A stretch of DNA of 64,000 nucleotides from an uncultured Gammaproteobacteria bacterium (GCA_964589575.1 CAZPSE010000006.1:81-64080), one strand, 5' to 3'. Shown: positions 8,934-64,000, counted from the stretch's first letter. Numbers and translations are program-made. The notes: generated from the letters alone by a model not told the origin.

Positions 8934-9021
8934 AAAAGCCCCTAAATCGTCGACCCCTTGCTTATTAGAAGTTGAAAAACCCCTAATAAATAAGCAAGGG
9001 GTCGACGATTTAGGGGCTTTT
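8934..9021. terminator. Perfect 33-bp-arm palindrome forming a long hairpin followed by a T-run; it embeds two inverted copies of the GTCGACCCCTTGC repeat
   Basis: aaaagcccctaaatcgtcgaccccttgcttatt ...loop... aataagcaaggggtcgacgatttaggggctttttt. Confidence 0.85.
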
Positions 9022-9092
9022 TTATGACGACAATATTTTATTAATATAAAATACCATGCTTAAAAATTAAAGCACAACACAAAGGTAATGTA

Positions 9093-10346
9093 ATGTTTTC
9101 AAAATCAATGAATATCCAAGACTATGATTCACAGTTATGGGACGCGATTCAAAATGAAACGCAACGACAAGAAGATCATATTGAGCTAATTGCTTCTGAA
9201 AACTATACCAGCCCGCGCGTAATGCAAGCACAAGGTTCTTCTTTAACTAATAAATATGCAGAAGGTTATCCGTCTAAACGTTATTACGGCGGTTGTGAAT
9301 TTGTAGATGTGGCCGAGCAACTGGCTATTGATCGTGTTAAATCTTTATTTAATGCAGACTATGCCAATGTACAGCCCCACTCAGGCTCGCAAGCTAATGC
9401 ATCTGTTTATTTAGCGTTGTTACAACCTGGCGATACTATTTTGGGCATGAGCTTGGCGCACGGTGGTCATTTAACTCACGGTTCTCATGTTAGTTTTTCT
9501 GGCAAAGTTTATAACGCTGTTCAATACGGCATTGACGATGTTACAGGTTTAGTTGATTATGATGAAATTGCGGCATTGGCAAAAAAACATAAACCTAAAA
9601 TGGTTGTTGCAGGTTTTTCGGCATACTCGCGTACTTTAGATTGGAATAAATTTAGAGAAATCGCAGATTCTGTAGGCGCTTATTTATTTGTAGACATGGC
9701 GCACATTGCAGGTTTAGTAGCGACAGGTTTGTACCCAAGCCCTGTAAACATTGCCGATGTTACAACCAGTACCACACATAAAACACTACGCGGCCCACGC
9801 GGCGGTATTATTTTAGCTAAAGCCAATGCAGAGATAGAAAAAAAGTTAAGCTCGGCTGTGTTTCCTGGTATGCAAGGTGGCCCTTTAATGCATGTTATCG
9901 CAGCCAAAGCTGTTGCATTTAAAGAAGCGGCAGAGCCTGAGTTTAAAGTGTATCAACAACAAGTTATAGATAATGCAAGTGCGATGGCTAATGTATTAAT
10001 ACAACGCGGTTACGATATTGTTTCTGGCGGTACTGATGACCATTTGTTTTTAGTTTCATTAATATCGAAAGGTATAACCGGTAAAGAGGCTGATGCCGCT
10101 TTGGGTCTTGCACATATCACCGTTAATAAAAATTCTGTTCCTAATGACCCTAAATCTCCCTTTGTTACCAGTGGTTTGCGTATTGGTACACCGGCTATGA
10201 CCGCACGGGGTTTTAAAGTGAAAGAAGCTGAATTAATAGCGAATTGGATGGCAGACATTATTGATGACTTATCTAATGAAGATACTATCGTTAAGGTGCG
10301 CTCTAAAGTGTCTGAACTTTGTAAAAACTTTCCTGTTTACTCATAA
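9093..10346 (+). CDS. glyA: Serine hydroxymethyltransferase
   Basis: 417 aa. Shows the conserved PLP-site [12 protein letters not shown] and full-length collinearity with GlyA. Confidence 0.95.
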
Positions 10347-10358
10347 CACGTATCATTT

Positions 10359-10805
10359 ATGAAATGTCCTTTCTGTTCCGATTTAGAAACGCGTGTAATC
10401 GACTCTCGGTTAACACCAGAGGGCGACAAAATAAAACGTAGAAGGGAGTGCGTTGCGTGTAAAGAACGTTTTTCTACGTTTGAATCTGCCGATGTTAGTT
10501 TCCCCAAAGTGGTTAAAAGTAACGGTACACGAGAAGTGTTTGAAGAAAGTAAGCTGTTGTCTGGCATTTCTCGCGCTTTAGAGCGTCGACCTGTGCCTAC
10601 TGAGCAAGTTGAAAATGCCATTAATCAAATAAAAAAACATTTAATGTCATTAGGCGATTCCGAAGTTACCAGCAGACGCATTGGCGAATGGGTAATGGAA
10701 GAATTACGTAAGTTAGACAAAGTGGCTTATATTCGGTTTGCCTCGGTTTACCGCAGCTTTGAAGACGTACAAGAGTTTCAAGATGTTATAGATGGTTTAG
10801 AGTGA
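10359..10805 (+). CDS. nrdR: Transcriptional repressor NrdR
   Basis: MKCPFC zinc ribbon plus ATP-cone, 148 aa. The glyA-nrdR-ribD synteny also supports it. Confidence 0.9.
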
Positions 10806-10811
10806 CTTGAA

Positions 10812-11915: not shown

Positions 11916-11929
11916 TATTAATGCGCTTT

Positions 11930-16501: not shown

Positions 16502-16576
16502 AAGGGTTTACATGTTTATAATTGTTTTGTATTTTCTCACATAATATTAAAGTGTGTAATACTTTAATAAAAGTGC

Positions 16577-16603
16577 TGTTTTCGTCGACCCCTTGCTATA
16601 TCT
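16577..16603. repeat. Solo GTCGACCCCTTGC repeat copy in the map/rpsB divergent intergenic region
   Basis: tgttttcgtcgaccccttgctatatc. Its reverse complement matches 34641-34660 in 20 of 20 positions. Confidence 0.8.
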
Positions 16604-30442: not shown

Positions 30443-30600
30443 AGTCTGAATTAGAAGATAAAAAGAATTTTTTTCATATTTTATAGGGGCTTGCAGTGTA
30501 TGAATAGTTTTTTTGAACTGATTAAAAGCAAGGGTGTCCACGCATAATGCTCTTGCAATTGTGTGTACCCACATCCTTGTAGGCAACAAAAACGCCTGTT

Positions 30601-31071
30601 TTAAGCGCGTTGTTTTTCTTTAATTTCATCTAAACTTTTACATTCAATACATAAATCTGCAGTAGGGCGGGCCTCTAAACGACGAACGCCAATTTCTATT
30701 CCGCAAGACTCACAAAAACCATAGTCATCGTCTTCAATTAAACGAATGGTTTTATCTATTTTTTTAAGCAGTTTGCGTTCTCTGTCACGGGTACGCAGTT
30801 CTAAAGAAAACTCTTCTTCTTGCGTTGCTCTGTCGTTAGGGTCAGGGAAACTGCTTGCATCATCTTTCATATGCTCCATAGTTTTATCAACATCTTGCAT
30901 TAACGACGCTTTCCAAGAAACTAAAATAGAAGTGAAGTGATTTAACATGTCACCGCTCATGTATTCTTCGCTCTTTTTTTGAGTATACGGCTCGAAACTA
31001 AATCCTTGTAAGTTGGTTTTTTTATCTGGCATTATCATTCTCAATTTTTTTTGCAAGAGCTTTAATATCAA
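30601..31071 (-). CDS. dksA: RNA polymerase-binding transcription factor DksA
   Basis: C4 zinc finger [26 protein letters not shown], with acidic coiled-coil tip DxxDxA-like residues. Confidence 0.9.
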
Positions 31072-32510: not shown

Positions 32511-32810
32511 TTAAGACTGATAACGAGGAGTAGGGTTAGCCTGATCTAAAGCTTGCTCTTGTGCTTTTATTGCTTGCCTGTGTGCTTTTTTTGCCACGTT
32601 TAAAGCTTTTTTGTAATTTTTATCTTTTATTGCATCTTTGGCTTTTTTAATCATCTTTCCGGTGTCACGCCATTCAAAACTTACTTTTTTAGCATCTCTA
32701 TTAGCAGATGATGCCGCTTTTATTGCATCATCTGCTTTTTGTTTGCTATCCGCAAAAGCCAGGTTTGCAAAAGTTAGCATTAATGAAATGGCTATTATTT
32801 TTTTAATCAT
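32511..32810 (-). CDS. Small lysine/alanine-rich secreted helical protein, unknown function
   Basis: 99 aa, signal peptide MIKKIIAISLMLTFANLAFA. Confidence 0.4.
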   Translation of the reverse strand: MIKKIIAISLMLTFANLAFADSKQKADDAIKAASSANRDAKKVSFEWRDTGKMIKKAKDAIKDKNYKKALNVAKKAHRQAIKAQEQALDQANPTPRYQS

Positions 32811-34496: not shown

Positions 34497-34533
34497 ACTT
34501 CGGTGATTCATCTTTCGATTTAGCTCGGCGTTA

Positions 34534-34592
34534 TTTTTTGTCACTAAACGGATCACATATTCGTTATATGCTCTCCATTTAGTGACAAAAAA
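34534..34592. repeat. 15-bp inverted repeat (ttttttgtcactaaa / tttagtgacaaaaaa) with a 29-nt spacer, downstream of guaB
   Basis: Read directly in the sequence. Confidence 0.8.
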
Positions 34593-34638
34593 TGCCTTGA
34601 TCTAAACCGAAATATGAACCATTTAGCATCATACCAAA

Positions 34639-34735
34639 GAGCAAGGGGTCGACGAAAACAGGCCTTTTTGTTGCCTACAGGGATGTAGGTACACAGAATT
34701 GCAGGAGCATTATGCGTGGAAACCCCTTGCTATCT
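34639..34735. repeat. MITE-like small element. GCAAGGGGTCGAC (left) and CCCCTTGC (right) are inverted termini that flank a hairpin-containing core, which is shared with 56939-56995
   Basis: Left end at 34641-34653 and right end at 34723-34730. The core cctacagggatgtaggtacacagaattg...atgcgtgg is about 85% identical to 56941-56985. Confidence 0.7.
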
Positions 34736-38636: not shown

Positions 38637-38786
38637 AGTTGTATACAGAAACATTGAAACACCGTTTTGGCTGTTTTTAAAAAAGCTTGAGTTTAAACTG
38701 CTCTAGTTTGATGTTTCTACAACCGACACGAGCCTTGCTCGTTACGATTTTGTTGTTGTCAGGTCACTTTTAAATACATAACACTA

Positions 38787-38810
38787 CCAAGGGGTCGACA
38801 GAAACAGGCA
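38787..38810. repeat. Solo copy of the GTCGACCCCTTGC-family repeat (inverted orientation: caaggggtcgacagaaacagg)
   Basis: Read directly in the sequence. Confidence 0.8.
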
Positions 38811-38851
38811 GTTTTGAGAGAATGGCACTGTATTTTTAACGGCTACGTTTT

Positions 38852-39295: not shown

Positions 39296-41205
39296 TGGAA
39301 ACCTGCAAACAAGTTTTTAGCGAGACAGGCCCATTAGTTAATGTTTTAGAAAACTACTCGCCCCGAAAAGAGCAATTAGCTTTAGCCACTAAAATAGAAG
39401 AGGTATTAGAAAGCAACCAAGTGTTAATTGGCGAGGCAGGCACAGGTGTGGGTAAGTCTTTAGCATACTTAGTACCTGTGTTGTTATCGGGCAAGCACAC
39501 TATTATTTCTACGGGTACTAAACATTTACAAGACCAGTTGTTTTATAAAGATGTGCCTATTGTAAAAAAAGCACTCGGTACAAATACACGCATATCTATG
39601 TTAAAAGGGCGTAAAAATTATTTATGTTTGCACCGTATGGACATGGCACGGCATAATTTTTTAACCCGCTTAAAAGAATATGCAGACCAGTTAAATGTAA
39701 TTGAAAATTGGTCGTACAAAACCAAAGTAGGCGAAATTACAGAAATAAGTGACGTTAAAGAAGACTCTCAAATTTGGCCATTGGTCACATCTACCACCGA
39801 TAATTGCATAGGGCAAGAATGCCCAAGCTGGGACGATTGTTTTGTAGTTAAAGCGCGTAAAAAAGCGCAAAAGTCTGACGTGGTGATTGTAAATCATCAT
39901 TTGTTTTTAGCCGACTTAGCTTTAAAGGACGAAGGTTTTGGCGAGATTTTACCCAACGCTCAAGCCTATATAATGGACGAGGCACATCAACTGCCCGAAA
40001 TTGCCGTTAATTTTTTTAGTACACGCATAAGCAATAAACACATTACCGAGTTGTGTCGCGACAGCATAGCCGAACAGCTTAACGAAGCACCAGAGATGAT
40101 GGAAATACGCTTAACCTGCGAAGATATTGAAGCCAATTTAAAAAAAGTAAGGCTGCAATTAGGCGAACAAAATGCCAAAAAACCGTGGGGGCAAATTGTT
40201 CATAAACCGTCCTTAAAGGTAGAAATGGTCGGTTTAATAAACCATTTTGAAAAGCTTAAAGCGCAATTAGAAATAGGTGCTGAACAAGGAAAAGGGTTAG
40301 AAAACTGTTTAGAAAGATGCTGTAACTTATTGGAATTTTTAAATAAATTTAATAATTTACAGTTTGAAGACCGTATTTTGTGGTTTGAATCTTGGAATAA
40401 TGGTTTTGCTTTTTATGCCACCCCGTACGAGATTGATAGCTTCTTTAAAAAGAAAATAGAACAACAATTATGCAGCTGGGTGTTTACCTCGGCTACCTTA
40501 TCGGTAGATAAAAACTTTAATCATTTTAAACAACAAATGGGCATAGATGGCGTTAACGAGTTAATACTAAACAGCCCGTTTGACTATAAAAATAATGCCC
40601 GTTTATACATACCTAACGACTTACCCTTACCAAGCGCCAATAATTACCATGTAGAACTTTTTAAACAAAGCCGAAAAATTATAAAAGCGGCAAAAGGGCG
40701 CACCTTTTTTTTATTTACCAGCTACCGTTCTTTAAATGCGGCGGCAGATTACTTTGAAAACTACACCGACTTTAACGTGTTTGTACAAGGTCGGGATGCC
40801 AAAATGAAGCTAATAGAAAACTTTAAAAAAACCGACAATGCTATTTTATTAGCCACATCGAGCTTTTGGGAAGGGGTCGATATACGCGGGCAAGCATTAA
40901 CCTGTGTAATTATAGAAAAGTTGCCCTTTGCATCCCCTGGTGATCCGGTATTAAAAGCACGCTTAGATTACATACAAAAAAATGGCGGCAATGCTTTTAT
41001 GGACTACCAAGTACCGCAAGCCATTATTAGCCTAAAGCAGGGCGCAGGGCGTTTAATACGCGACTATAGCGACAAAGGCTTATTAATGCTGTGCGACTCT
41101 CGGTTAGTTACCAAACCGTACGGAAAACTGTTTGTAAATAGCCTAAACGCCATGCCAAAAGTAAAAGACAGCCAACAGGCAGAAGCCTTTTTGGAAACCT
41201 TATGA
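39295..41205 (+). CDS. yoaA: DinG-family ATP-dependent DNA helicase, YoaA-like
   Basis: 636 aa with Walker A GEAGTGVGKS, a DEAH box (MDEAHQL) and a cysteine cluster for the Fe-S domain. Confidence 0.8.
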   Translation: METCKQVFSETGPLVNVLENYSPRKEQLALATKIEEVLESNQVLIGEAGTGVGKSLAYLVPVLLSGKHTIISTGTKHLQDQLFYKDVPIVKKALGTNTRISMLKGRKNYLCLHRMDMARHNFLTRLKEYADQLNVIENWSYKTKVGEITEISDVKEDSQIWPLVTSTTDNCIGQECPSWDDCFVVKARKKAQKSDVVIVNHHLFLADLALKDEGFGEILPNAQAYIMDEAHQLPEIAVNFFSTRISNKHITELCRDSIAEQLNEAPEMMEIRLTCEDIEANLKKVRLQLGEQNAKKPWGQIVHKPSLKVEMVGLINHFEKLKAQLEIGAEQGKGLENCLERCCNLLEFLNKFNNLQFEDRILWFESWNNGFAFYATPYEIDSFFKKKIEQQLCSWVFTSATLSVDKNFNHFKQQMGIDGVNELILNSPFDYKNNARLYIPNDLPLPSANNYHVELFKQSRKIIKAAKGRTFFLFTSYRSLNAAADYFENYTDFNVFVQGRDAKMKLIENFKKTDNAILLATSSFWEGVDIRGQALTCVIIEKLPFASPGDPVLKARLDYIQKNGGNAFMDYQVPQAIISLKQGAGRLIRDYSDKGLLMLCDSRLVTKPYGKLFVNSLNAMPKVKDSQQAEAFLETL

Positions 41206-42407: not shown

Positions 42408-43148
42408 ATGGCTAAAATTGATTCAAACCCTTTAGGTATCTCTAATGGTTTAATAAATAAATATAAGAATATAAAAAGGCCATACCAAAAATACAAAAAA
42501 TCACCCGTTACTTTCGAAGTGGCAGAGGATTGTTTTGTAAATTGTCGCGCCATAGTGGTAAAAGACAAAACCTATGTTGTGCCACGGCACATTAATCGTG
42601 TTGATATTTGTTCAGGAAAAAATAATAAAGGCACACATGGCTGGCAATTACGTTATAAAAAAATATCTAAATTTTATAATGACCGTAAACAATCGTCTAT
42701 TAAGTTAGGCTTAGAAAAAGCCAAAAATGACTTACGAAAAGGTTATGTAGCTAAAGACCATATAGAAATTGTAAATCAAAAACTAAATAAAAAAAATTTA
42801 AAAACTAAAAAAATAAAACTCATCCCTGGTGTTAATATCGCCTCGTCAACATTGGCTAAAACAATGGTAAAACACTACAACGTAGTTTGTTGTATTTCTG
42901 TTTTAAACGGTAAAGCAAGGCAGTTTACAAAATACTTATCGGTAGAAGAACGTTTAACCCAAGAAAAACTGAACAAGGCTTTAGATGTGCTTTTAACCTT
43001 ACGAAAATATTCGGAACATTTGTACCATACAAAACAGCCAGAAATTGCCAAAATACTAAGTGTAAAACACATTACGCCATTATTAATAAAAGAGTATTGC
43101 CCTAAAATTAAATACCCAACAATCCAACAAGTAGTCAAGGCGTATTAA
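42408..43148 (+). CDS. Basic (Lys/Arg-rich) orphan protein, possible DNA-binding, unknown function
   Basis: 246 aa. It is preceded by a 118-bp AT-rich gap. A weak AP2/integrase-DNA-binding-like stretch (GTHGWQLRYKK) is present. I could not assign a family. Confidence 0.4.
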   Translation: MAKIDSNPLGISNGLINKYKNIKRPYQKYKKSPVTFEVAEDCFVNCRAIVVKDKTYVVPRHINRVDICSGKNNKGTHGWQLRYKKISKFYNDRKQSSIKLGLEKAKNDLRKGYVAKDHIEIVNQKLNKKNLKTKKIKLIPGVNIASSTLAKTMVKHYNVVCCISVLNGKARQFTKYLSVEERLTQEKLNKALDVLLTLRKYSEHLYHTKQPEIAKILSVKHITPLLIKEYCPKIKYPTIQQVVKAY

Positions 43149-43152
43149 AGCT

Positions 43153-43680
43153 GTGCTAAAGGGTACGTTTATAGCTTCTATTAAAGATGGATGGTTTCGA
43201 GCGATGCTGTTTTCCTTAATTTGGTTAATACTTGTCGATGCTAATTGGGATTCTTGGTTATTTGCGGTTCCCGTCGTGCTGATAAGTACTTATGTGAGCA
43301 TATTATTACTGCCCAGTTTTTCCATTTCAATAATCGGCCTTATTCGTTTTATTCCTTATTTTCTTTGGCATTCTTTACGTGGTGGGCTAGACGTGGCGAT
43401 ACGTGTCTTCCAGATAAAATTACAAATTTCCCCTGCGATAGTAAGCTACCAATGGCGCTTACCGCCAGGGATTTCACGCGTATTTATGGCCAATGTCACA
43501 AGTTTACTGCCTGGTACATTAAGTGTAGAACTGGAAGATGAATTGCTTTATGTGCATGTTCTTGATGAGTCAATTGATTATTTTACTGATATGCAAGAGC
43601 TGGAAGAACGTATTGCCCAAATGCTTGGCATCTGTTTAAACAATCAAGAAAAAAACCAAATAAGGAATAAATTTAAATGA
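43153..43680 (+). CDS. Multisubunit cation/H+ antiporter subunit E (MrpE/MnhE/MbhA-like)
   Basis: 175 aa. Two N-terminal TM helices are followed by a soluble domain, and it is the first gene of an Mrp-type cluster. Confidence 0.65.
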   Translation: MLKGTFIASIKDGWFRAMLFSLIWLILVDANWDSWLFAVPVVLISTYVSILLLPSFSISIIGLIRFIPYFLWHSLRGGLDVAIRVFQIKLQISPAIVSYQWRLPPGISRVFMANVTSLLPGTLSVELEDELLYVHVLDESIDYFTDMQELEERIAQMLGICLNNQEKNQIRNKFK

Positions 43681-43952
43681 CTACGTTGTATTTAGTGGTT
43701 GCACTGTTTCTTTTACTAACGCTAGTAGTTGGTTTATGGCGTGTTTTACATGGGCCTACAGCTGCCGATCGTATGCTGGCGGCGCAGTTGTTTGGTACTA
43801 CGGCGGTTGCTTGTTTAATATTGCTTTCTCAAGCTTTAAAACAGCCGTCTTTTATAGATGTGGCCTTGGTATTTGCACTACTAGCGGTAGTCACCGCCGT
43901 GGCATTTATTAAACGTTTTTGGGCGGAGGAATCAAATCATGTCGATGATTGA
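43677..43952 (+). CDS. Antiporter subunit F (MrpF/MnhF-like)
   Basis: 91 aa, 3 TM helices; overlapping starts and stops with its neighbours. Confidence 0.65.
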   Translation: MTTLYLVVALFLLLTLVVGLWRVLHGPTAADRMLAAQLFGTTAVACLILLSQALKQPSFIDVALVFALLAVVTAVAFIKRFWAEESNHVDD

Positions 43953-44238
43953 TGTTTTAACTGCCATTTTCGTAATTACTGGTGCACTGTTTTTTTTAGC
44001 CGGTACCGTAGGTCTGCTGCGCTTTCCAGATGTTTATACCAGAATTCATGCTTTAACCAAAGCCGATAATTTAGGCCTTGGGTTAATAATAGTTGGGCTT
44101 ATTTTACAAGCAGAATCTCTTATATTTGTGGCTAAACTAATATTTATTTGGCTGTTAGTATTACTTTCTGGAGCGGGTGTTGCGCATTTAATTGCAACCG
44201 CTGCACGACAGCGAGGTGTTAAAACGTGGAAGCCATAA
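43939..44238 (+). CDS. Antiporter subunit G (MrpG/MnhG-like)
   Basis: 99 aa, 3 TM helices. Confidence 0.65.
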   Translation: MSMIDVLTAIFVITGALFFLAGTVGLLRFPDVYTRIHALTKADNLGLGLIIVGLILQAESLIFVAKLIFIWLLVLLSGAGVAHLIATAARQRGVKTWKP

Positions 44239-44534
44239 GTTTACTGTTGATATTTGATGTTTTAATCGGTTTAACCTTGCTTTGGCTAGCATGGCAAGCG
44301 TTAAGCAGCCCCGATTTATTTCGTGCTGTTGTGTTATTTATCGCCTTTGGTTTATTAATGGCTTTGGCATGGGTTCGTTTAGACGCGCCAGATGTGGCCC
44401 TAGCAGAAGCGACAATAGGCGCGGGTTTAACCGGTGCATTACTACTTTCCTCGTTGGCGCGTATCCGTTTAGAGTCAAATAGAAGCAAGAACATTAAAAA
44501 TAAAAACAGCATAAGTGCAACGAAAGATACTTAA
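44226..44534 (+). CDS. MrpB N-terminal-like small membrane subunit (DUF4040/MbhD-like)
   Basis: 102 aa, 3 TM helices. It is in the position of MbhD in Mbh/Mrp modules. Confidence 0.5.
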   Translation: MEAISLLLIFDVLIGLTLLWLAWQALSSPDLFRAVVLFIAFGLLMALAWVRLDAPDVALAEATIGAGLTGALLLSSLARIRLESNRSKNIKNKNSISATKDT

Positions 44535-44539
44535 TAACT

Positions 44540-45226
44540 ATGGACGATGACATCAAACAACCGCCTTTATTTATTAGGCTACTACTTATACTGTTGTTAG
44601 GCGGGTTAACGGTAAGTTTGTCGGTGGCTATTTTGTCTTTGCCAGAACAAGCACCAGGTTTAAGTACAGATGTTGCTGAAAATTTAAATAAAAGTGGGGT
44701 AAGCAACCCCGTTACTGCCGTTTTACTTAATTACCGAGCTTACGATACCTTGCTAGAGCTGGGTGTACTGTTTTTAGCATTACTAGGTATTTGGTCGCTT
44801 GGGGAAAGCGCTAAACCCATAAACGCTAAACCAGGCCCTGTATTAGATATACTATCTCGTGTGTTAACACCATTACTTATTTTGGTTGCGGGTTACCTTT
44901 TATGGGTTGGTGCTTATCAACCAGGTGGTGCTTTTCAAGCTGGCGCGGTATTAGGGGCTGCGGGCGTTTTACTGTTATTAAGTGGTTGGCAACTCAATGC
45001 CAAATATGCAGGTTTTGCTTTTCGTGTTAGCGTGGTTGCAGGTTTGCTTATTTTTGTCATTATTGGTTTAACTTTTATCTTGTTTTCTAACCAGTTTCTT
45101 CAATACCCACCTTATTACGCACCCGGTTTGATTTTATTTATAGAAACCGCGGCAACTGTATCTATTGGGATAAGCTTAGTCGCGCTTTTTTTAGGCGGTG
45201 AACCAAAATCGGGGCTACAAAAATGA
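44540..45226 (+). CDS. Antiporter subunit B (MrpB/MnhB-like)
   Basis: 228-aa polytopic membrane protein. Confidence 0.6.
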   Translation: MDDDIKQPPLFIRLLLILLLGGLTVSLSVAILSLPEQAPGLSTDVAENLNKSGVSNPVTAVLLNYRAYDTLLELGVLFLALLGIWSLGESAKPINAKPGPVLDILSRVLTPLLILVAGYLLWVGAYQPGGAFQAGAVLGAAGVLLLLSGWQLNAKYAGFAFRVSVVAGLLIFVIIGLTFILFSNQFLQYPPYYAPGLILFIETAATVSIGISLVALFLGGEPKSGLQK

Positions 45227-45528
45227 GTTCAACATTTTTTTATGCATTAGTGGGCGTAGGTTTATTTAGCATTGGTATCTATGCCTTAATTATTTATGCC
45301 CATTTATTACGTAAAATTCTTGCAATTAATGTTATGGGCAGTGGCGTGTTTTTGGTGTTAGTGGCATTAGCCACACGAACAGGTGCAACCCCAGATGCAG
45401 TACCCCATGCAATGGTTATAACCGGTATTGTAGTTGCGGTATCTGCTACCGCTTTGGCACTGGCATTACTGTTAAAAGTACAATCAGAAACTGGCAGTGT
45501 AGAACTGCCAGAAGAACCGTTGGAGTAG
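45223..45528 (+). CDS. Antiporter subunit C (MrpC/MnhC, NuoK-like)
   Basis: 101 aa, 3 TM helices, NuoK-like. Confidence 0.75.
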   Translation: MSSTFFYALVGVGLFSIGIYALIIYAHLLRKILAINVMGSGVFLVLVALATRTGATPDAVPHAMVITGIVVAVSATALALALLLKVQSETGSVELPEEPLE

Positions 45529-45531
45529 ATA

Positions 45532-46977
45532 TTGATAGAAGGTTTTCATTGGCTAATTTTTGTTATATTTACCCCTCTTATAGGGGCGGTAAGTTGCTTT
45601 TTATGGCCTAAATACAACGTAAAACTGGCATTAATCACAACGTTTTTGTCGGTGTTTAGTGTTGCGGGTCTCACTTGGCAAATTGTCATTTATGGCGCGC
45701 AACGTTATAAATTGGGCGGTTGGGATGCACCGTTAGGTATACATCTTTATGTAGACGGTTTAAGCCTGTTAATGTTAATAATAACGGCTGTTGTAGGTTT
45801 GGCTATTAGTGTTTATTCTTCTGCTTATTTTAAAGCAGAAAAAGCCAAATATTTTTGGCCATTATGGTTGTTTTTGTGGTCGGCTTTAAATGGCTTATTT
45901 GTATCTGCGGATATTTTTAATCTTTTTGTTACATTAGAATTAATAGGTTTATCGGCAGTTGCTTTGGTCGCCTTGTCTGGTGGTGCTAATGCGATAACGT
46001 CTGCAATGCGTTATTTATTAGTGAGTTTACTCGGCTCACTCTTTTACCTTATGGGCGTAGCCTTGCTTTATCACAGTTATGGCACGGTCGATATTATGAT
46101 GTTGGGGCAACAGGCACAATTAACACCCACCATGTGGTTAGCTATCGGTTTAATTACTTCGGGCTTGCTGCTTAAAACTGCACTGTTTCCAATGCATTTT
46201 TGGTTGCCACCGGCACACTCTAGTGCGCCTACACCTGTTAGTGCGTTATTGTCAGCGTTAGTGGTTAAAGCTTCTTTTTATATTTTGTTGCGGTTGTGGT
46301 TAGACGTATTTCCATTAACTATAGAACCTGCAACAATTAATATTGGCATGATTTTAGGTTTGCTAGGTTCGACGGCAATAATTTGGGGCGGCGTTCAAGC
46401 ATTGCGTCAAACACGGTTAAAATTATTGGTTGCTTATTCAACCGTAGTACAAATTGGTTATATGTTTTTGGCCTTTCCTTTAGCAAGTATTTTAGGCTGG
46501 AAAGCCGCGCTTTATTTTGTACTGGCACATGCTGTTGCCAAAACGGCCATGTTTATGGCAGCAGGTAATATTTTGTTTTACGGAGGACATGATCGCATTG
46601 TAGATTTGGACAGAGTTGCCCAGCGTTTGCCCATAACTTTAATAGCATTTGGTGTTGCAGGCGTTAGCCTTATGGGGTTGCCACCAAGTGGTGGCTTTAT
46701 TGCAAAATGGTTATTACTAGAGGCGGCGATTGTTTCCGGTCAATGGTGGTGGGGTTTAATGTTAATAGCTGGGGGGTTACTAACCGGTACCTATGTGTTT
46801 AAAGTTATTGGTTATGCTTTTACAGAAGCAGAATGCCCGCATGAAGCTAAAAAGGTGCCTAAAATTATGGAATGGACGGCATTAATGATGGCTATATTGG
46901 CAATAGTATTGGGTTTTCTTGCACCGGTATTGCTGCCGTTAATGGAAATTGGTACTCCGTTTGGTGAAAGTTTATGA
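45532..46977 (+). CDS. Antiporter subunit D (MrpD-like, NuoN/NuoM family), TTG start
   Basis: 481 aa. It has about 14 TM helices and proton-pumping antiporter-like conserved regions (HFWLPxAH). Confidence 0.75.
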   Translation: MIEGFHWLIFVIFTPLIGAVSCFLWPKYNVKLALITTFLSVFSVAGLTWQIVIYGAQRYKLGGWDAPLGIHLYVDGLSLLMLIITAVVGLAISVYSSAYFKAEKAKYFWPLWLFLWSALNGLFVSADIFNLFVTLELIGLSAVALVALSGGANAITSAMRYLLVSLLGSLFYLMGVALLYHSYGTVDIMMLGQQAQLTPTMWLAIGLITSGLLLKTALFPMHFWLPPAHSSAPTPVSALLSALVVKASFYILLRLWLDVFPLTIEPATINIGMILGLLGSTAIIWGGVQALRQTRLKLLVAYSTVVQIGYMFLAFPLASILGWKAALYFVLAHAVAKTAMFMAAGNILFYGGHDRIVDLDRVAQRLPITLIAFGVAGVSLMGLPPSGGFIAKWLLLEAAIVSGQWWWGLMLIAGGLLTGTYVFKVIGYAFTEAECPHEAKKVPKIMEWTALMMAILAIVLGFLAPVLLPLMEIGTPFGESL

Positions 46978-48473
46978 TGAATTGGGAAAGCTGGATGCCA
47001 CTATCAGTTGTTCTTAGCTCATTTATTGTTGCGCTATTAATTTTCCCCTTGTCAGAAGAGAAAGCGAAAACCCGTATGATTTTAAACATGGCAGGTGCTT
47101 TGTTTAAGCTGGCATTGGTTATTGCCATGTTGTGGGGCGTGTATAACGGTTATCATTTTGAAACCCGCATAGCGATGTTACCTGGGCTAGACTTTGTTTT
47201 AAGAGCTGATGCCTTGTCTATGTTGTTTGTAACGCTTTCTGCGGGTCTTTGGTTATTAACTACCGTTTACGCTATTGGTTATCTCGAAGATTCCCCTCAT
47301 CGAAGCCGTTTTTTTGGTTTTTTTAGCCTTTGTGTAACGGCAACAGTAGGTGTTGCACTGTCAGGTAATTTACTTACATTTTTGGTGTTTTACGAACTCT
47401 TAACACTGGCAACCTACCCATTAATTGTACACAGAGGAACAGAAGCTGCACGTAAAGCAGGGCGGACTTATCTTGTTTATACCCTATCTGGTGGTGCAAT
47501 GCTTCTGCTTGGTACAATTTGGTTATACACCATTACTGGCACGCTAGAATTTACTCCTCAGGGGTTTGTTTCAGCCTTAGACAGTTCCTACCATCCGTCA
47601 CTTATTATTATTTTTGTATTGTTAATGATTGGCTTGGGTGTCAAAGCGGCACTTATACCTTTTCATGGCTGGCTGCCTCAATCTATGGTTGCCCCTGCAC
47701 CGGTAAGTGCCTTATTGCATGCGGTGGCCGTTGTAAAAGCCGGGGCGTTTGGCATTATTAGGGTGCTTTACGATGTGTTTGGAATAGAATTTAGTGCCAC
47801 CTTGGGCGTAACTTTACCCTTAGCAATTATTGCCGGAGTAACCGTTATATATGGCTCGACGCGGGCGCTCTTTCAGGACGATTTAAAACGACGATTGGCA
47901 TTCTCCACCGTCAGTCAAGTTTCTTACATTATTCTTGGTGTTGCTATAGTGGGCCCAGTAGCCACCATTGGTGGCATGGTGCATTTAGTGCACCAAGGGG
48001 TAATGAAAATAACCCTGTTTTTTTGCGCCGGTAACTTTGCAGAAACGCTGGGTATACACAAAATAAGTGAAATGAACGGGGTAGGTAAACGCATGCCATG
48101 GACTATGGCGGCTTTTACCATTGGTGCTTTTGGTATGATTGGTGCGCCCCCACTTGCGGGTTTTATTAGTAAATGGTATTTAGGCGTGGGTGCGTTAGAG
48201 GCAGGCCAAGGCTGGGTAATATACATTTTGGTAGGCAGTAGTTTGCTAAATGCCGCTTATTTTTTACCTATTTTATACGCCGCTTGGTTTAAACCACAAA
48301 TAGGAAAATGGCCAGCCGAACGCAAATTTGGCTCTTTTGAAACCGCTTTAGCATTATTGGCACCGCCGGTTATAACAGCAATATTGGCGGTGTTATTGGG
48401 TTTACTGGCATCGACTCCTTTTAGCCCGCTAGAGTGGGCGCGTTTTATTACCTTAAAGGAATATCGATTGTGA
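46974..48473 (+). CDS. Second MrpD/NuoM-like antiporter subunit
   Basis: 499 aa with FHGWLP and VHQGVMK motifs typical of NuoM/MrpD. Confidence 0.75.
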   Translation: MMNWESWMPLSVVLSSFIVALLIFPLSEEKAKTRMILNMAGALFKLALVIAMLWGVYNGYHFETRIAMLPGLDFVLRADALSMLFVTLSAGLWLLTTVYAIGYLEDSPHRSRFFGFFSLCVTATVGVALSGNLLTFLVFYELLTLATYPLIVHRGTEAARKAGRTYLVYTLSGGAMLLLGTIWLYTITGTLEFTPQGFVSALDSSYHPSLIIIFVLLMIGLGVKAALIPFHGWLPQSMVAPAPVSALLHAVAVVKAGAFGIIRVLYDVFGIEFSATLGVTLPLAIIAGVTVIYGSTRALFQDDLKRRLAFSTVSQVSYIILGVAIVGPVATIGGMVHLVHQGVMKITLFFCAGNFAETLGIHKISEMNGVGKRMPWTMAAFTIGAFGMIGAPPLAGFISKWYLGVGALEAGQGWVIYILVGSSLLNAAYFLPILYAAWFKPQIGKWPAERKFGSFETALALLAPPVITAILAVLLGLLASTPFSPLEWARFITLKEYRL

Positions 48474-48540
48474 AACATTATCTAAGCTTGGCTCTAGTAA
48501 TTGACGTGTTAAAACTGCCGAGTGTTTTAGTGACTACCGC

Positions 48541-50367
48541 TTGGCTAAGCAAAGGCGTGTCTCTTTTATGATGGCATTAACACCCTCACTATTTTTATTA
48601 ATGGTGCCTACTTTACCTTTTTTGCTAGCAGTAGCATTAATGGTCAGTTCTAAACGTGACAAACTGGTTTTTTTGGCACCTTGGGTTATTTTACCCGCGT
48701 TATTGTTGCCCATAATATTACCAGTAGGGTTTGAGCTTGAACTGCCGTGGATGTTATTAGGTGTTCATTTAGGTTATGACGATACTGCTAGAGTTTTTTT
48801 GATTTTTAGTTCAATACTTTGGTTAGTGGCCAGTATATATGCCTTTGGCTATTTTGATAATAAGGCTGAAAAAACAAACTTTTTTAGTTACTTCATGTTG
48901 GCTATGACGGGTAATTTTGGTCTTATACTGGCCCAAGACGTACTGATGTTTTTTACCTTCTTCACTTTAATGAGCCTTGCCAGCTATGGTTTGGTGGTAC
49001 ACAACCGTGGTGTAGAGGCTTTAAGAGCAGGGCGTATTTACATCATTTTAGTGATTGTTGCAGAAGTCACTTTGTTTGCCGGCTTTGTTATGGCCACTTT
49101 AGCGGCAGGTAGTACAGAGTTTGTTGATTTTCGCAGATTAATCCCTTTGTCAGATTCTAAAGACGTAATTATGGCATTGGTATTTTTAGGTTTTGGTATT
49201 AAAGCTGGGGTAATTGGTTTGCATGTTTGGTTACCATTAGCGCACCCCGTTGCGCCCACGCCAGCTAGTGCGGTTCTTTCGGGGGCTATGATAGCGGCAG
49301 GTTTATTGGGTTGGATGCGTGTAATGCCACTTGGCGAAGCGGCTTTACCCTTTTGGGGTGCCGTTATGATTATTGCCGGCATGGTTGCTACTTTTTACGC
49401 CGTTTTTGTTGGGGTATTACAACGTAACGCAAAAACAGTTTTGGCTTACTCTAGCATTAGCAGCATGGGCATTATGACTATGGCGACTGGTTTAGGGCTT
49501 ATTGCGCCTAATAATTGGCCATTTATTTTAACTGCTATTTTAGTCTATGTTATGCAGCATGGCCTTGCTAAGGGTGCATTATTTCTTGGCGTGGGGTTAT
49601 GTGCAAAACCTGTCGTATCTCGTAGCTTGCGCTACTTGTTTATTGTGGCATTACTCATTCCCGTACTCACTTTGGCGGGTGCGCCACTAACAAGTGGATT
49701 AATTGCTAAGCATTTACTAAATATACAGTTAATAGAAGCCGCATCGCCTTGGGCAAATTGGGTGCAAATGCTACTACCTTGGAGTGCCATAGCAAGCAGT
49801 GCACTTTTAATTCGTTTTTTATTTTTAGTTTGGCCACAAGCAAATGATACAAGCGACTCTAAAGCGGTTTTAACTACCCCTGTAATGTTAGCAAGCTATA
49901 TTAAATGGGGTTCTTGGTTAGCATTGGTTGCCGTAGTTGCACTTAGCCCGTGGTTGGTTTCGTTAATAATAATTAAAGATGGCTCGACACCCTATTACTG
50001 GTCAATAGCATCATCAATTAGCGCGTTGTGGTCTATAGTATTGGCCTTAACCGTAGCGGCAGGCGCATGGTTTATTACACGCCATACCCTGTTTTATAAA
50101 AAGTTGGCTATACCCGCAGGTGATATGGTTATTATTGTAGAACAATGGCTATGGCCGCAACTCGTGTTAATGGTATCAATGGTTTTTACTGTATTAAATA
50201 AACCAAGGTTATTTTTATTAGCCAAAATAAATGAATGGCTTAATGGTGACAATTTAACTTCTGTGATGACGAGTTTAGAGGTGCGATGTAAACACTGGAC
50301 AGTGGCAACAACTTTGTTGCTGGTACTGGTTGCTGTGTTTGTTTTTACCCTTAGCGTTTATGGTTAA
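48541..50367 (+). CDS. MrpA/NuoL-like large antiporter subunit (lacks the MrpB-like C-terminal domain)
   Basis: 608 aa, polytopic, with a WLPLAHPVAPTP motif. Confidence 0.7.
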   Translation: MAKQRRVSFMMALTPSLFLLMVPTLPFLLAVALMVSSKRDKLVFLAPWVILPALLLPIILPVGFELELPWMLLGVHLGYDDTARVFLIFSSILWLVASIYAFGYFDNKAEKTNFFSYFMLAMTGNFGLILAQDVLMFFTFFTLMSLASYGLVVHNRGVEALRAGRIYIILVIVAEVTLFAGFVMATLAAGSTEFVDFRRLIPLSDSKDVIMALVFLGFGIKAGVIGLHVWLPLAHPVAPTPASAVLSGAMIAAGLLGWMRVMPLGEAALPFWGAVMIIAGMVATFYAVFVGVLQRNAKTVLAYSSISSMGIMTMATGLGLIAPNNWPFILTAILVYVMQHGLAKGALFLGVGLCAKPVVSRSLRYLFIVALLIPVLTLAGAPLTSGLIAKHLLNIQLIEAASPWANWVQMLLPWSAIASSALLIRFLFLVWPQANDTSDSKAVLTTPVMLASYIKWGSWLALVAVVALSPWLVSLIIIKDGSTPYYWSIASSISALWSIVLALTVAAGAWFITRHTLFYKKLAIPAGDMVIIVEQWLWPQLVLMVSMVFTVLNKPRLFLLAKINEWLNGDNLTSVMTSLEVRCKHWTVATTLLLVLVAVFVFTLSVYG

Positions 50368-50436
50368 ACTGCAAATGCCAGCAGTAACTTGGCAGCAAAA
50401 AGTGCAAATATAAAAAGCCCTAAAACGGCTAAAATC

Positions 50437-50449
50437 GTCGACCCCTTGC
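50437..50449. repeat. Solo GTCGACCCCTTGC repeat copy
   Basis: Read directly in the sequence. Confidence 0.8.
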
Positions 50450-50466
50450 TCTTATTTGAATGCAAA

Positions 50467-50632
50467 CCCTAATCCTCATATAGAAAATATAAAAATGCCA
50501 CAATCCTTTAATGCACCTAGTAAAACTAAAAATCGTCTCATCACCAATAAGGTGACCACGACGTTTTTAATTTCCCTATGCACATCAAATGATTGCACCT
50601 GTTTCACATTTCTATATGAGGATTAGGGTAAT
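50467..50632. repeat. Cassette bounded by 20-bp inverted repeats: ccctaatcctcatatagaaa (50467-50486) and tttctatatgaggattaggg (50609-50628). A third solo copy lies at 62176-62199
   Basis: Perfect 20-bp inverted repeats flank about 120 bp. The interior contains a possible 43-codon ORF (50495-50626). Confidence 0.75.
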
Positions 50633-50697: not shown

Positions 50698-52591
<1,894 letters not shown>

Positions 52592-55228: not shown

Positions 55229-55780
55229 ATGGACGATCAGCAAGCTGTAAAAAGTGTTAAAAAATGGATTAACGAATTCATTATCCCCAACAATGTTTGT
55301 CCATTCGCCTATAAAGAAATTCAAAACAAAACAACACGTTTTATCGTTAAACAACATAACTCAATTGAAGACACCTTATTTAACATAATAAATGAACTGA
55401 CGCAGTTAGATAAAGAGCTAGAAACCAATACTTCGCTATTTATTATTAACCAAGGGGTCGACGATTTTGATGCTTTTTTAGACTTGGTATCATTGGCAAA
55501 TGCGTTATTAGAAAAGCAAAACTATGCAGGCGTATATCAACTAGCAAGCTTTCACCCGCAATATCAGTTTGAAAATACCAAGCAAGACGCTGCAGAAAAT
55601 TTTAGCAATCGCGCACCATGTCCAGTTATACATATTTTAAGAGAAACAGCCGTTGAGCTAGCGGTTAAGCAACACATAGACGTACATCAAATACCCAAAG
55701 ATAATATCAAACGTTTAAATGAGATTGGTTTTAAAAAATTAAAAGGTGACTTAACAAAACTTATAGACATTAAGTTTTAA
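55229..55780 (+). CDS. Conserved hypothetical protein (DUF1415-like); contains an in-CDS GTCGAC repeat copy at 55453-55468
   Basis: 183 aa. I assign it to this family from memory only. Confidence 0.45.
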   Translation: MDDQQAVKSVKKWINEFIIPNNVCPFAYKEIQNKTTRFIVKQHNSIEDTLFNIINELTQLDKELETNTSLFIINQGVDDFDAFLDLVSLANALLEKQNYAGVYQLASFHPQYQFENTKQDAAENFSNRAPCPVIHILRETAVELAVKQHIDVHQIPKDNIKRLNEIGFKKLKGDLTKLIDIKF

Positions 55781-55824: not shown

Positions 55825-55826
55825 AT

Positions 55827-56890: not shown

Positions 56891-56938
56891 AATTGATAAT
56901 AATACGTTAAAAAGATGCTCTAGCGTTGGCTACATGGA

Positions 56939-56995
56939 TGTAGGTACACAGAATTGAATGGAACACTATGCGTGCCACCCCTTGGTGGTTTAATA
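56939..56995. repeat. Second copy of the hairpin-containing repeat core (ctacatggatgtaggtacacagaattg...atgcgtg..ccccttgg), 40 bp upstream of mfd
   Basis: About 85% identical to 34676-34730. Confidence 0.7.
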
Positions 56996-61418: not shown

Positions 61419-61437
61419 ATCGAACCGTATTAAAATT

Positions 61438-62175
61438 TTAGTTAGATAAGTTTAATTGAGCAATTAACTTAGCAATCTTTTGCATGCCAATATTAAGGTT
61501 TTGTTGTATAGCCTCCATATCAATGCTTTCACCATTAATTCCTGCTGCCCAATTTACTACAATACAACAGCTCATGTAATTTATGCCCGCTTCTTTGGCT
61601 AAAATCGCTTCTGGCATAGCGGTCATACCCACCAGATCACAGCCATCATTACGCATACGTTTAATTTCGGCAACGGTTTCTAACCTTGGGCCTTGGGTGC
61701 AACCGTAAACGCCACCATCAAAATAACTAATATTTAACTTATTTAAAATATTTTTTATATAAAGTTGTAACGTTGGTGAATAAGGCTGGCTAAAGTCACA
61801 ATAACTGACCTTTTTATTAGCATCAAAAAAAGTATGCTCGCGCGAATGTGTGTAATCTATTATTTGATTAGGAAGCGCAATAGATGCAGGGCTGCATTTT
61901 GAATTGATACCGCCGACCGCATTAATTGAAACAATATCGGTTACACCGCATTGTTTTAATGCATCAATATTGGCGCGATAATTAATTAAATGTGGTGCAA
62001 TCTGATGTTGTTCACCATGTCGAGATAAAAAATAGATAAATGAATTATTTAACGATACTTCATAAATTTTAGTAGATGTAGCTCCATATTGGCTTTTGAT
62101 TTCGTGCTCTTTTACAATTTTATAATCGGTTAACTGGTACAGCCCAGTACCCCCAATTAGTGCAAGTTTTTTCAT
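61438..62175 (-). CDS. mtnP: S-methyl-5'-thioadenosine phosphorylase / PNP-family phosphorylase
   Basis: 245 aa, LALIGGTGL start, PNP/MTAP fold motifs. Confidence 0.7.
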   Translation of the reverse strand: MKKLALIGGTGLYQLTDYKIVKEHEIKSQYGATSTKIYEVSLNNSFIYFLSRHGEQHQIAPHLINYRANIDALKQCGVTDIVSINAVGGINSKCSPASIALPNQIIDYTHSREHTFFDANKKVSYCDFSQPYSPTLQLYIKNILNKLNISYFDGGVYGCTQGPRLETVAEIKRMRNDGCDLVGMTAMPEAILAKEAGINYMSCCIVVNWAAGINGESIDMEAIQQNLNIGMQKIAKLIAQLNLSN

Positions 62176-62199
62176 ATTACCCTAATCCTCATATAGAAA
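62176..62199. repeat. Solo copy of attaccctaatcctcatatagaaa, abutting the mtnP start codon
   Basis: 24 nt identical to the reverse complement of 50609-50632. Confidence 0.8.
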
Positions 62200-62250
62200 T
62201 ATGCAAGAGGTACACATTTTATGTGCATAAGGAAACTAAAAACATCACTG

Positions 62251-64000
62251 TCACTTTTCTTCAACCCACCATGTTTTTAATATATAAGGCGTAGCCGCAT
62301 AATAAAGCGGTAAAACTTTAGGGCCTTTTAAGGTATTTTTATAAGCAACCCGGTGTTCAGCTATATACCAATTAGGTATTAAGTAATGCCCTGTTAACAA
62401 TACCCTGTCTAAAGCTTTAGATGCTGCTACTAAATTGACTCTATCGGTCGCATAAATAATTTCGTCTATCAAGTTATCAACCACAGCATTATTAATGCCC
62501 GCTAAATTTAAAGAGCCTTTTTTATTTGCAGCGATAGACGAAAAATAATTTTTCAATTCATTACCCGGTGATTGGGATTGACCGTAGCTCATCACCACCA
62601 TGTCAAAGTCAAAAGATTCTATTTTGTGCTGGTATAAGGTAGTGTCAATAGTTCGATAGCTTGCATGTATGCCCAATTTTTTTAGGTTACTTACAAAGGG
62701 TGCAACAATTCGTTCAAAACCTTTTTGTGCTAATAAAATAGTAAAATCTAAGGGTTCACCTTTGTCATTTTGTAACCGTCCTTTATTAATTTTCCAGCCT
62801 GCTTCTTTTAATAGTCGTGTTGCTTGACGTAAGTTTTTTCTTAAACTGTTGGGAAAAGCAGTAGAAGCCGGTTGCAATATTGTGTCAAAAACAGGCTCTA
62901 GCGTCGACCCCTTGCCTTGGTTTTTTATGTGTTTATTTAATAAGGCTAACTCTAAACCGGTCGGTTTACCTGTGGCTGCTAATGTACTATTGCTAAAATA
63001 GCTATTGCAGCGTTTATATTGGCCATAAAATAAGTTTTTATTAGACCATTCAAAATCTAACGCCATACTGATAGCTTGGCGTGTTTTAGCATTACTAAAC
63101 TTATCCAGTCGCGTATTAAATATAAAACCTTGCATACCAGCGTTATTACTGTGTTTTAGTGTATTTTTAACTAAGGTGCCATCTTTAAATTTAGGCCCTT
63201 TATAGTCTCTAGCCCATCGTTTTGAATGATTTTCAAGTATAAAATCAAACTCCCCTGCTTTAAAACCTTCTAAGGCTACGGTTAAATCTTTAAAGTATTT
63301 GTATGTAATGGTCTTAAAATTAAACATACCCCTGCGTACATTTAAGTCATTAGCCCAATAATTAGGGTTCTTTTTGTAAACAATAACTTTACCAGGTTGA
63401 AAAGAGTCAATTAAATAAGGCCCACTGGTAATGGGCTTTTCTAGCAGCGTTTTATTAAATGCTTTACCGTTTAGCCATGTTTTACTAAATATTGGCATAC
63501 CGCCAATAACAAGGTGAAGTTCTGGGTTGGTTTGTACAAAATTAAATTTAACTCTGTATTTATCTAAAACAACGGCGTTTTTAATGTCACCATAATATAT
63601 TTTAAATTGAGGGTGCGCCTCTTCACCCGTTAAGGTATCAAAAGAAAACTTAACATCGGCAGCGGTAACAGCGTCACCATTATTAAAACGGGCATGTTCA
63701 TTTATGGTAAAAATTACAGAAAGCCCATCACTGGCGAGTTTAATATCTTTTGCTAATAAGGCATACACACTAAAGGGCTCATCAAGGCTTTTTTCCATTA
63801 ATGATTCAAACATTAATAGGTTTAAACCATCTGCAGATATAGACTTTAATAAAAATGGGTTGAGTGTTTGAAACGTACCAAATGCAGATAAGTTAATGTT
63901 TCCATTTTTGGGCGCATTAGCATTTACATAGTCAAAATGAGAAAAACCGTCTTTGTATTTAGGCTCGTACCCTAATGCCATAGACGAGGCAGCAAAACTT
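62251..64000 (-). CDS. ABC transporter periplasmic substrate-binding protein, family 5 (oligopeptide/YejA-like); N-terminus beyond the window
   Basis: FDYVNANAPKNG mature-N-terminus motif typical of YejA/OppA-like SBPs. The reading frame stays open to position 64000. It contains an in-CDS GTCGAC repeat copy at 62894-62908. Confidence 0.75.
   Translation of the reverse strand, partial: SFAASSMALGYEPKYKDGFSHFDYVNANAPKNGNINLSAFGTFQTLNPFLLKSISADGLNLLMFESLMEKSLDEPFSVYALLAKDIKLASDGLSVIFTINEHARFNNGDAVTAADVKFSFDTLTGEEAHPQFKIYYGDIKNAVVLDKYRVKFNFVQTNPELHLVIGGMPIFSKTWLNGKAFNKTLLEKPITSGPYLIDSFQPGKVIVYKKNPNYWANDLNVRRGMFNFKTITYKYFKDLTVALEGFKAGEFDFILENHSKRWARDYKGPKFKDGTLVKNTLKHSNNAGMQGFIFNTRLDKFSNAKTRQAISMALDFEWSNKNLFYGQYKRCNSYFSNSTLAATGKPTGLELALLNKHIKNQGKGSTLEPVFDTILQPASTAFPNSLRKNLRQATRLLKEAGWKINKGRLQNDKGEPLDFTILLAQKGFERIVAPFVSNLKKLGIHASYRTIDTTLYQHKIESFDFDMVVMSYGQSQSPGNELKNYFSSIAANKKGSLNLAGINNAVVDNLIDEIIYATDRVNLVAASKALDRVLLTGHYLIPNWYIAEHRVAYKNTLKGPKVLPLYYAATPYILKTWWVEEK

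Follow-up and report, generated by a model that had tools for sequence, protein, structure and literature searches.

An invariant 12-bp DNA word that appears to be kept site by site in an uncultured gammaproteobacterial lineage, and its possible role as an uptake-type signal

Why does one short, asymmetric DNA word recur letter for letter along an ordinary bacterial chromosome? Is it the trace of a small mobile repeat, or is it held in place by something that reads it? The question is raised by a 64,000-nucleotide stretch of DNA from an uncultured Gammaproteobacteria bacterium (GCA_964589575.1, CAZPSE010000006.1:81-64080), analysed over its whole length and called the window throughout. Its genes are those of an ordinary chromosome: acrB-like, glyA, nrdR, ribD, glnD, map, rpsB-tsf-pyrH-frr, dksA, folD, xseA, guaBA, a class A penicillin-binding protein (PBP), a DinG-type helicase, tsaB, crcB, serS, trpS, scpAB, mfd and others. 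The word is the 12-mer GTCGACCCCTTG, the core of a dispersed repeat that an initial annotation had likened to repetitive extragenic palindromic (REP) sequences or miniature inverted-repeat transposable elements (MITEs). From sequence comparison we conclude with good confidence that the repeat appears to be a DNA word that some lineage-specific protein reads and that is kept site by site, and not a usual REP or MITE. More tentatively, and at slightly less than an even chance, we read it by analogy as an uptake-type signal, of the kind known as DNA uptake sequence (DUS) or uptake signal sequence (USS).

The 13-mer GTCGACCCCTTGC has six exact copies in the window (Table 1) and did not occur in any of 100 dinucleotide-preserving shuffles of it. 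Two further copies deviate from it solely at position 13 (C to G), and there are therefore eight exact 12-mers GTCGACCCCTTG, four on each strand, where about zero are expected. The dispersed family proposed by the initial annotation is thus real; its coordinates were off by 1 at the two palindrome arms, by ~3 at the copy in the DUF1415 gene and by ~9 at the copy in the solute-binding-protein (SBP) gene. Copies and non-copies are sharply separated. Eight matches to GTCGACCCCTTG are perfect, none has one mismatch, and one has two (40869-40881), while a profile built from the copies returns eight matches at E <= 7e-6, followed by a next best at E = 1.2. This excess of perfect over singly mismatched copies (8 vs 0) is a mark by which uptake signals are recognised (PMC1626085), and the over-representation of an asymmetric core on both strands is another. 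The two-mismatch site is a doubtful near-copy inside the helicase gene. At the orthologous site of the related contig L177 (695-706) the core matches at 11 of 12 bases, and the EGVD codons there and in the window are GAA GGG GTC GA(T/C). Among the five GVD tripeptides encoded in the window, the rare GGG GTC pair is used in two, both at motif or near-motif sites.

What does a single copy look like? A sequence logo was drawn from an alignment of 12 distinct copies, taken from the window and from its relatives. The full motif spans ~29 bp and consists of AAAA, a G/C-rich pentamer, an A/T-rich pentamer, a C, the invariant 12-mer, C or G, and T; the flanks first described as partly conserved are part of it. 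AAAA occupies positions -15 to -12 in 11 of the 12 copies, and the A/T-rich pentamer is an A-tract or a T-tract at the same position, depending on the copy. Could such a unit, ~30 nt long, be a selfish repeat of the REP or MITE kind, moved as an inverted doublet (a REPIN) or as a long form by a transposase encoded elsewhere, for instance a REP-associated tyrosine transposase (RAYT)? Single copies would then be remnants, and a hairpin doublet would act as a terminator incidentally. We consider this unlikely. A REP unit is an imperfect palindrome that forms a hairpin, and this defining feature is lacking in the single units, whose sole self-complementarity is a 6-bp GTCGAC palindrome in an otherwise asymmetric sequence. 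The alternation of A-tract and T-tract at one position fits a structural need better than common descent, and no transposase, RAYT included, was seen in the window. GGGGTCGACG...GAAAAC is reminiscent of the terminal repeats of the Tn3 family, a reading that was given up since the invariant CAA would fall beyond the supposed terminus.

Might the word be the site of some other sequence-specific DNA-binding protein, such as a nucleoid-organising or segregation factor, a global regulator or a site-specific recombinase, under purifying selection and co-evolving with its reader? The invariant 12-bp core with its bipartite A-tract flank suggests protein contacts combined with DNA bending, and would suit such a site, which we nevertheless rate as rather unlikely. 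The motif is asymmetric, and both orientations occur irrespective of which way the neighbouring genes run (manual tally). The flanking genes share no evident function, and no promoter consensus and no fixed distance to promoters or start codons was found at the copies. Cumulative GC skew rises over most of the window's length, yet the copies are split evenly between the strands; the skew that Chi or FtsK-orienting polar sequences (KOPS) would need is absent, and an oriented word of this type was rejected. A sigma-70 promoter with TTGC(T/A) as its -35 element was likewise discarded, no consistent -10 element or spacing being present.

Evidence for maintenance in place comes from relatives, whose contigs were found through their proteins (L161-169, L170, L122, L172 and L177-180). 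By GuaB, the host, a gammaproteobacterium that is poorly sampled, has relatives at 90, 86 and 79% identity; everything else is at or below 76%, Methylococcales and Thiotrichales included, which hold the nearest named GuaB relatives (~75%). Three intergenic positions are shared: upstream of rpsB, downstream of the PBP gene and upstream of serS. At all three the core is identical in 12 of 12 bases, while the flanks agree in 6-15 of 30 bases per side, which is near chance, and the distances to the genes differ. L161 too has a copy upstream of rpsB, between unrelated flanks; L170 has its copy 9 nt after the PBP gene, with flanks unlike those of the window; L177 and L178 carry a copy upstream of serS, where a 7.3-kb operon of the window is absent. 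Transposed copies in decay would look quite the reverse of an invariant core between diverged flanks, since inactive remnants should decay evenly. The word would rather have been created and kept in place at many chromosomal positions, not transposed. Copies at shared positions are also what another protein's site would produce.

The core itself varies between lineages. Throughout the window group (35-39% GC) it reads GTCGACCCCTTG; more distant relatives carry the variant RTCGAACCCTTG, with ATCGAACCCTTGG twice in L179 and GTCGAACCCTTGC twice in L180, both with family-like flanks. Simple arithmetic puts the probability of meeting a given 13-mer again within 8-17 kb below 1e-3. In this small sample the lineage variants are uniform within a genome, as are the 'dialects' of uptake signals, and a variant core in distant relatives would equally fit a protein site that evolves together with its protein.

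How did copies come to lie inside genes? Two of the eight window copies do so, in the DUF1415 and SBP genes, and six lie between genes, both as initially described, in a window of which ~91% is coding. The DUF1415 copy coincides with the QGVDDF motif that is conserved across the whole family and shows no indel against homologues. It uses the rare codons GGG (12%) and GTC (8%). An orthologue of 67% identity has the same DNA at this site, one of 48% identity reads GCAAGGGGTCGAT, and GGG GTC is kept in both. Since it is present in orthologues at 67% and 48% protein identity, the copy is presumably old and arose in place, which speaks against the recent spread that the initial annotation had suggested. 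Its alternative suggestion, a constraint at the protein level, is partly borne out for DUF1415 and does not explain the rare codons or the matching flank. Codon conservation at the site is no more than suggestive, given that 57-63% of codons are shared at identical residues gene-wide. As to the encoded peptides, QGVDD had been read correctly, whereas the SBP gene encodes GKGSTLEP and not ASTLEP. The SBP copy falls in a variable loop that exceeds the loop of most homologues by 5 residues, and a conserved VF beside it supplies the T-run. In L180 (42% G+C) both copies lie in one nnr gene, in two reading frames, each followed by a run of 5-6 T at a similar offset; compared with homologues in the PDB, the L180 Nnr protein is ungapped at the copy that lies within the conserved AQG region, and shows a gap of 1 residue close to the second copy.

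These copies point to an origin by point mutation without a large indel (DUF1415, L180 Nnr), as known for uptake signals; a comparison of this kind is also how USS were found not to be insertions (PMC1626085). Three of the four variant copies in L179 and L180 also lie within genes, a share at odds with the extragenic location of REP sequences, and in-gene copies without a large indel, in several reading frames, count against REP- or MITE-like transposition. Nor does the Rickettsia-type palindromic element, an in-frame palindromic insertion of 100-150 nt, describe them: DUF1415 and Nnr contain no added segment, and SBP at most 5 extra residues. For a regulatory protein site, 29-bp matches in housekeeping genes, in different frames, are hard to explain.

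Does the repeat act in RNA? The two arms at 8934-9021 form a perfect 33-nt inverted repeat, 100% complementary, with 22 nt between them. Folding, suggested as a check by the initial annotation, gave a hairpin of -61.3 kcal/mol (z = -13.6), followed by T6 and terminator-like on both strands; a simple terminator scan misses it because of the 22-nt loop. The terminator or structural role first proposed for the repeat would suit this pair and not the single copies, none being called a terminator-like hairpin at 34641 and 50437. The one inverted pair in terminator position is a further feature shared with uptake signals. An element that works at the RNA level, be it half a terminator, a target of small or antisense RNA, or a protein-binding RNA motif, with the long form (below) perhaps a CsrA-type GGA hairpin, would profit from the folding of the pair on both strands and from the finding that the five independent in-gene copies all point the same way with respect to the mRNA (manual tally). 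We judge it very improbable. Intergenic single copies stand in either orientation to transcription (3 vs 5), and one is upstream of divergent promoters. Single copies and long forms are not significantly structured (z = -1.2, -0.8 and +0.55). No Rfam family matches the repeat; in the window only tRNA-Arg and the t44 leader reach the gathering score, with noise at E <= 10.

Three long forms complicate this picture. Each consists of the motif's left flank plus GT, a ~50-nt insert that replaces the central CG, and the right end ACCCCTTG(C/G); a partial copy initially noted at 34723-34730 is the 3' end of long form A. They are best read as motif copies that took up a small (~50 nt) insert in their GTCGAC part. 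Long form C has a flank unlike those of A and B, which makes independent insert events plausible; the left flank of C resembles that of the SBP copy. Long form A and the neighbouring single copy close a 90-nt hairpin (composite z = -5.0); a long form by itself has no significant structure (z = -1.2). Within the inserts, a hairpin CCUACA-(G/A/U)GGA-UGUAGG lies at 34672-34690, 30565-30583 (minus strand) and 56927-56945, and a second GGA-containing stretch follows ~22 nt after it in A and C, reading AAGA in B. The hairpin is close to the CsrA SELEX consensus, RUACARGGAUGU, and all three long forms are oriented as the downstream gene (guaA, folD, mfd), two points that favour an element acting in RNA; their distances to the start codons differ (47, 87 and 49 nt, respectively), which does not. 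The hairpin may serve as a leader or decoy of the CsrA type, or the match may be coincidental. Reading GGTACA-N-TTGCA of the long form as a sigma-54 promoter was rejected by eye, with the spacing wrong and copy C lacking the GC.

Has part of the family moved? The initial annotation had suggested a test for insertion polymorphism among relatives, and one such case was found: the ~125-nt guaB-guaA block, made up of a single copy and long form A, is absent from L170. Movement of REP, REPIN or MITE type gains from this block, from the 81-92% identity among the long forms and from the perfect 33-nt inverted doublet, which is REPIN-like. Like REP sequences, the repeat is short, lineage-specific and mostly intergenic at gene boundaries. 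Copies also adjoin synteny breaks: the 7.3-kb operon lies between an orphan gene and the serS copy and is absent from L177, and relatives differ in which genes lie upstream of rpsB and downstream of the PBP gene. An unrelated MITE-like repeat at 50463-50616 shows that the genome does harbour small mobile repeats. It consists of ~23-nt arms (AAACCCTAATCCTCATATAGAAA) inverted ~108 nt apart upstream of serS, and looks like a MITE-type insertion because it is missing upstream of serS in L177; a third arm copy (62175-62214) overlaps the start of a purine-nucleoside-phosphorylase-like gene. Unlike REP sequences, the repeat is not built of imperfect palindromes, enters genes without large indels and keeps its core while its flanks decay, and it was on these grounds, the palindrome, the genes and the core, that the initial REP- or MITE-like classification was not supported. 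The guaB-guaA locus, the sole filled and empty site, offers no clean junctions and no visible target-site duplication. The indel and the likeness of the long forms therefore indicate that some copy-and-paste process also acts on the motif family.

Placement at gene-content boundaries is in keeping with a site of another protein as well. In L161 two direct copies flank one gene; direct flanking was seen only once, which weakens that case. A cassette or att-site reading was discarded too, for the gene is flanked only in L161 and its homologue in the window has no flanking copy.

Table 1. Copies, near-copy and long forms of the repeat in the window
Feature	Coordinates	Strand	13-nt core	Remarks
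Left arm of inverted pair	8934..8966	+	8949-8961, exact	12-nt core 8949-8960; begins 6 nt past the stop codon of a dynamin-like gene
Right arm of inverted pair	8989..9021	-	8994-9006, exact	12-nt core 8995-9006 on the minus strand; then TTTTTT; upstream of glyA (start 9093)
Single copy	16569..16597	+	16584-16596, exact	Divergent map-rpsB intergenic region; the conserved rpsB promoter and t44 leader follow after ~50 nt
Long form B	30527..30602	-		92% identity to A over 71 nt; directly after the dksA stop, 87 nt upstream of folD
Single copy	34640..34668	-	34641-34653, exact	Between guaB and guaA; A/T-G/C flank common with the abutting long form A
Long form A	34655..34731	+		Left flank, GT, ~50-nt insert with hairpin CCTACA-GGGA-TGTAGG, then ACCCCTTGC
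Single copy	38786..38814	-	38787-38799, position 13 = G	150 nt downstream of the class A PBP gene
Near-copy, doubtful	40869..40881	-		10/12 match inside the DinG-type helicase gene; encodes EGVD (GAA GGG GTC GAT; read by eye)
Single copy	50422..50450	+	50437-50449, exact	Between the end of the 7.3-kb operon (stop 50367) and serS (start 50698)
DUF1415 copy	55449..55477	-	55450-55462, position 13 = G	Sense CAA GGG GTC GAC GAT TTT GAT GCT TTT = QGVDDFDAF
Long form C	56910..56986	+		81% identity to A over 47 nt; 49 nt upstream of mfd
SBP copy	62888..62916	+	62903-62915, exact	Family-5 solute-binding-protein gene (minus strand); sense GGC AAG GGG TCG ACG CTA GAG CCT GTT TTT = GKGSTLEPVF

Which known system does the repeat resemble most? 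The USS of Pasteurellaceae (core AAGTGCGGT or ACAAGCGGT, ~29 bp) combines its core with two A/T-rich flanking segments about a helical turn apart; its copies are reported to be 'not insertions', perfect ones outnumber those with a single mismatch, and sites are stable between species (Redfield et al., PMC1626085). The repeat shares the asymmetric conserved core with weaker, patterned A/T-rich flanks, the two orientations, the excess of perfect copies, the in-gene origin by substitution, the stable homologous sites, the subclade variants and the inverted pairs in terminators (PMC1626085). The DUS of Neisseriaceae is a 12-mer (AT-GCCGTCTGAA) with the receptor ComP, present at 2,245-5,918 copies per ~2.4 Mb, or 1-2.5 per kb, in lineage dialects (PMC3630211). 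It too is a 12-bp asymmetric word, often intergenic, with dialects that differ by one or two bases and are uniform per genome, and with inverted pairs as terminators (PMC3630211). The differences are as clear. GTCGACCCCTTG is unrelated in sequence to GCCGTCTGAA or to AAGTGCGGT and ACAAGCGGT, and the host lies outside both families, so neither DUS nor USS proper is at hand. USS are common inside genes and 5-10 times denser in competent Pasteurellaceae, whereas window copies are mostly intergenic; DUS lack a long patterned flank and number thousands, against an extrapolated few hundred copies here. The highly iterated palindrome of cyanobacteria, HIP1 (GCGATCGC, 8 bp, ~1 per kb), resembles the repeat as a short word spread through coding and non-coding DNA by substitution rather than transposition and kept by some force at the DNA level; unlike HIP1, the repeat is 12 bp long, asymmetric and far rarer.

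How would an uptake-type signal account for these features? The surface DNA receptor of a naturally competent cell would preferentially bind DNA that bears the word; such fragments would be taken up and recombined more often, so that any point mutation by which the word is created or restored would spread. It would accumulate where it is tolerated, in intergenic DNA, in inverted pairs with a second role as terminators and in those protein segments that are compatible with it or variable, and its sequence would shift together with the receptor into lineage dialects. DNA uptake as the selective or driving agent is proposed here by analogy with DUS and USS.

A number of observations weigh against uptake. 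The density is ~1 copy per 8 kb in the window (8 in 64 kb) and ~1 per 6.4 kb across the clade (17 in ~109 kb), whereas uptake signals occur at about one per 0.4-3 kb. It lies ~10-fold below that of Neisseriaceae and most Pasteurellaceae, and near that of Haemophilus ducreyi, a species with 199 USS copies that is thought to have lost uptake (PMC1626085). An extrapolated few hundred copies per genome are more typical of some other protein's site. Window copies are strongly intergenic, with 6 of 8 in ~9% of the sequence, which looks more REP-like, and no competence, pilus or receptor gene was seen in the 64-kb window, nor any competence gene in the short contigs read from relatives. Signs of copying tell in the same direction: the guaB-guaA block is an insertion or deletion difference between relatives, the long forms look copied, and some flanks are alike in sequence, those of the SBP copy and long form C for example. 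The window and its relatives together amount to a small sample, ~115 kb. To our knowledge, uptake sequences occur in two families only, Neisseriaceae and Pasteurellaceae, and the prior for a further uptake signal is accordingly low.

Is the word found elsewhere? In GTDB genomes of 185,579 species (one each), AAAA-N10-CGTCGACCCCTTGC gave 12 chance singletons, from taxa that are unrelated and mostly G+C-rich. In metagenomes of the Joint Genome Institute (JGI) it gave one related contig, L154, with a copy just downstream of guaB. In these collections the extended motif is thus confined to one rare lineage, a further trait in common with uptake signals. Nothing relevant to the extended motif appeared in phage contigs or plasmids, exact 14-mer scans of public collections gave chance matches among the matches listed, and the motif string was not reported as a repeat in the literature searched. 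Searches with ten more window proteins added a single close relative, a Logan sequence on a 1.9-kb contig. On this sequence footprint, the repeat may be a third, independently evolved uptake-signal system, with core GTCGA(C/A)CCCTTG, a ~29-bp motif, dialects and an uncultured gammaproteobacterial host outside Pasteurellaceae and Neisseriaceae, a proposal about which we are more doubtful than convinced. The host lineage possibly comes from hydrothermal vents. The related contigs carry the sample labels FORT17, FORT21, REYS20 and JOHN19, which may denote hydrothermal-vent metagenome studies. The window encodes a homologue of the SoxAX-binding protein (32511-32810, minus strand; NCBIfam SAXB, E = 2e-21), which suggests a sulfur-oxidising lifestyle.

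Further features of the window deserve mention. The nine-ORF, 7.3-kb operon (43153-50367; ORF, open reading frame) has a T-rich coding strand and a G+C content of 0.40-0.43, above its surroundings, and contains no motif copy; it may encode Mrp-type or NADH-dehydrogenase-like membrane subunits. Before it lies an orphan gene for a basic protein of 246 residues (42408-43148), found in just 5 clusters among 5.8 billion proteins (also L161 958-1692, L177 2177-2908, L179 6173-6916 and L180 3689-4432). The protein matches no Pfam or NCBIfam family, and its AlphaFold model (pLDDT, the predicted local distance difference test score, 52) has no significant fold match. The gene neighbours crcB in the window and L177 and lies between rne and rluC in L179 and L180; in L161, where it is upstream of rpsB, a direct motif copy stands on either side of it. 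L177 has one motif copy just downstream of the gene, and in both L177 and L178 a motif copy and serS come immediately after it. In the window serS (50698-51971) is split into ORFs 50698-51351 and 51390-51971 by a frameshift near TTCAAATAGG, beyond which the SerS sequence resumes in a different frame; the metagenome-assembled genome contains a sequencing or assembly error here, or else serS is a pseudogene. Downstream of guaB, a 28-nt inverted repeat (34533-34593; 86% complementary, 5 nt between arms), preserved but shortened in L170, is probably the actual guaB terminator or a regulatory hairpin. The AcrB-family transporter gene has at its 3' end a tandem repeat of 18 nt (4830-4919; 4-5 units) that encodes KEETKAKEDTKA-like peptide repeats.

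What would an uptake-type signal mean for this lineage? The reason why sequence-specific uptake exists is still debated between molecular drive and selection for within-species recombination. If the reading is true, a third, unrelated word with the footprint of uptake in an uncultured lineage would imply that this footprint evolves repeatedly, and the word would offer a tag by which to find a new receptor and to follow recombination in metagenomes. Should the repeat not be an uptake signal, a 12-bp word formed in place within conserved genes and invariant amid diverging surroundings would point to an unrecognised, genome-wide and sequence-specific DNA process.

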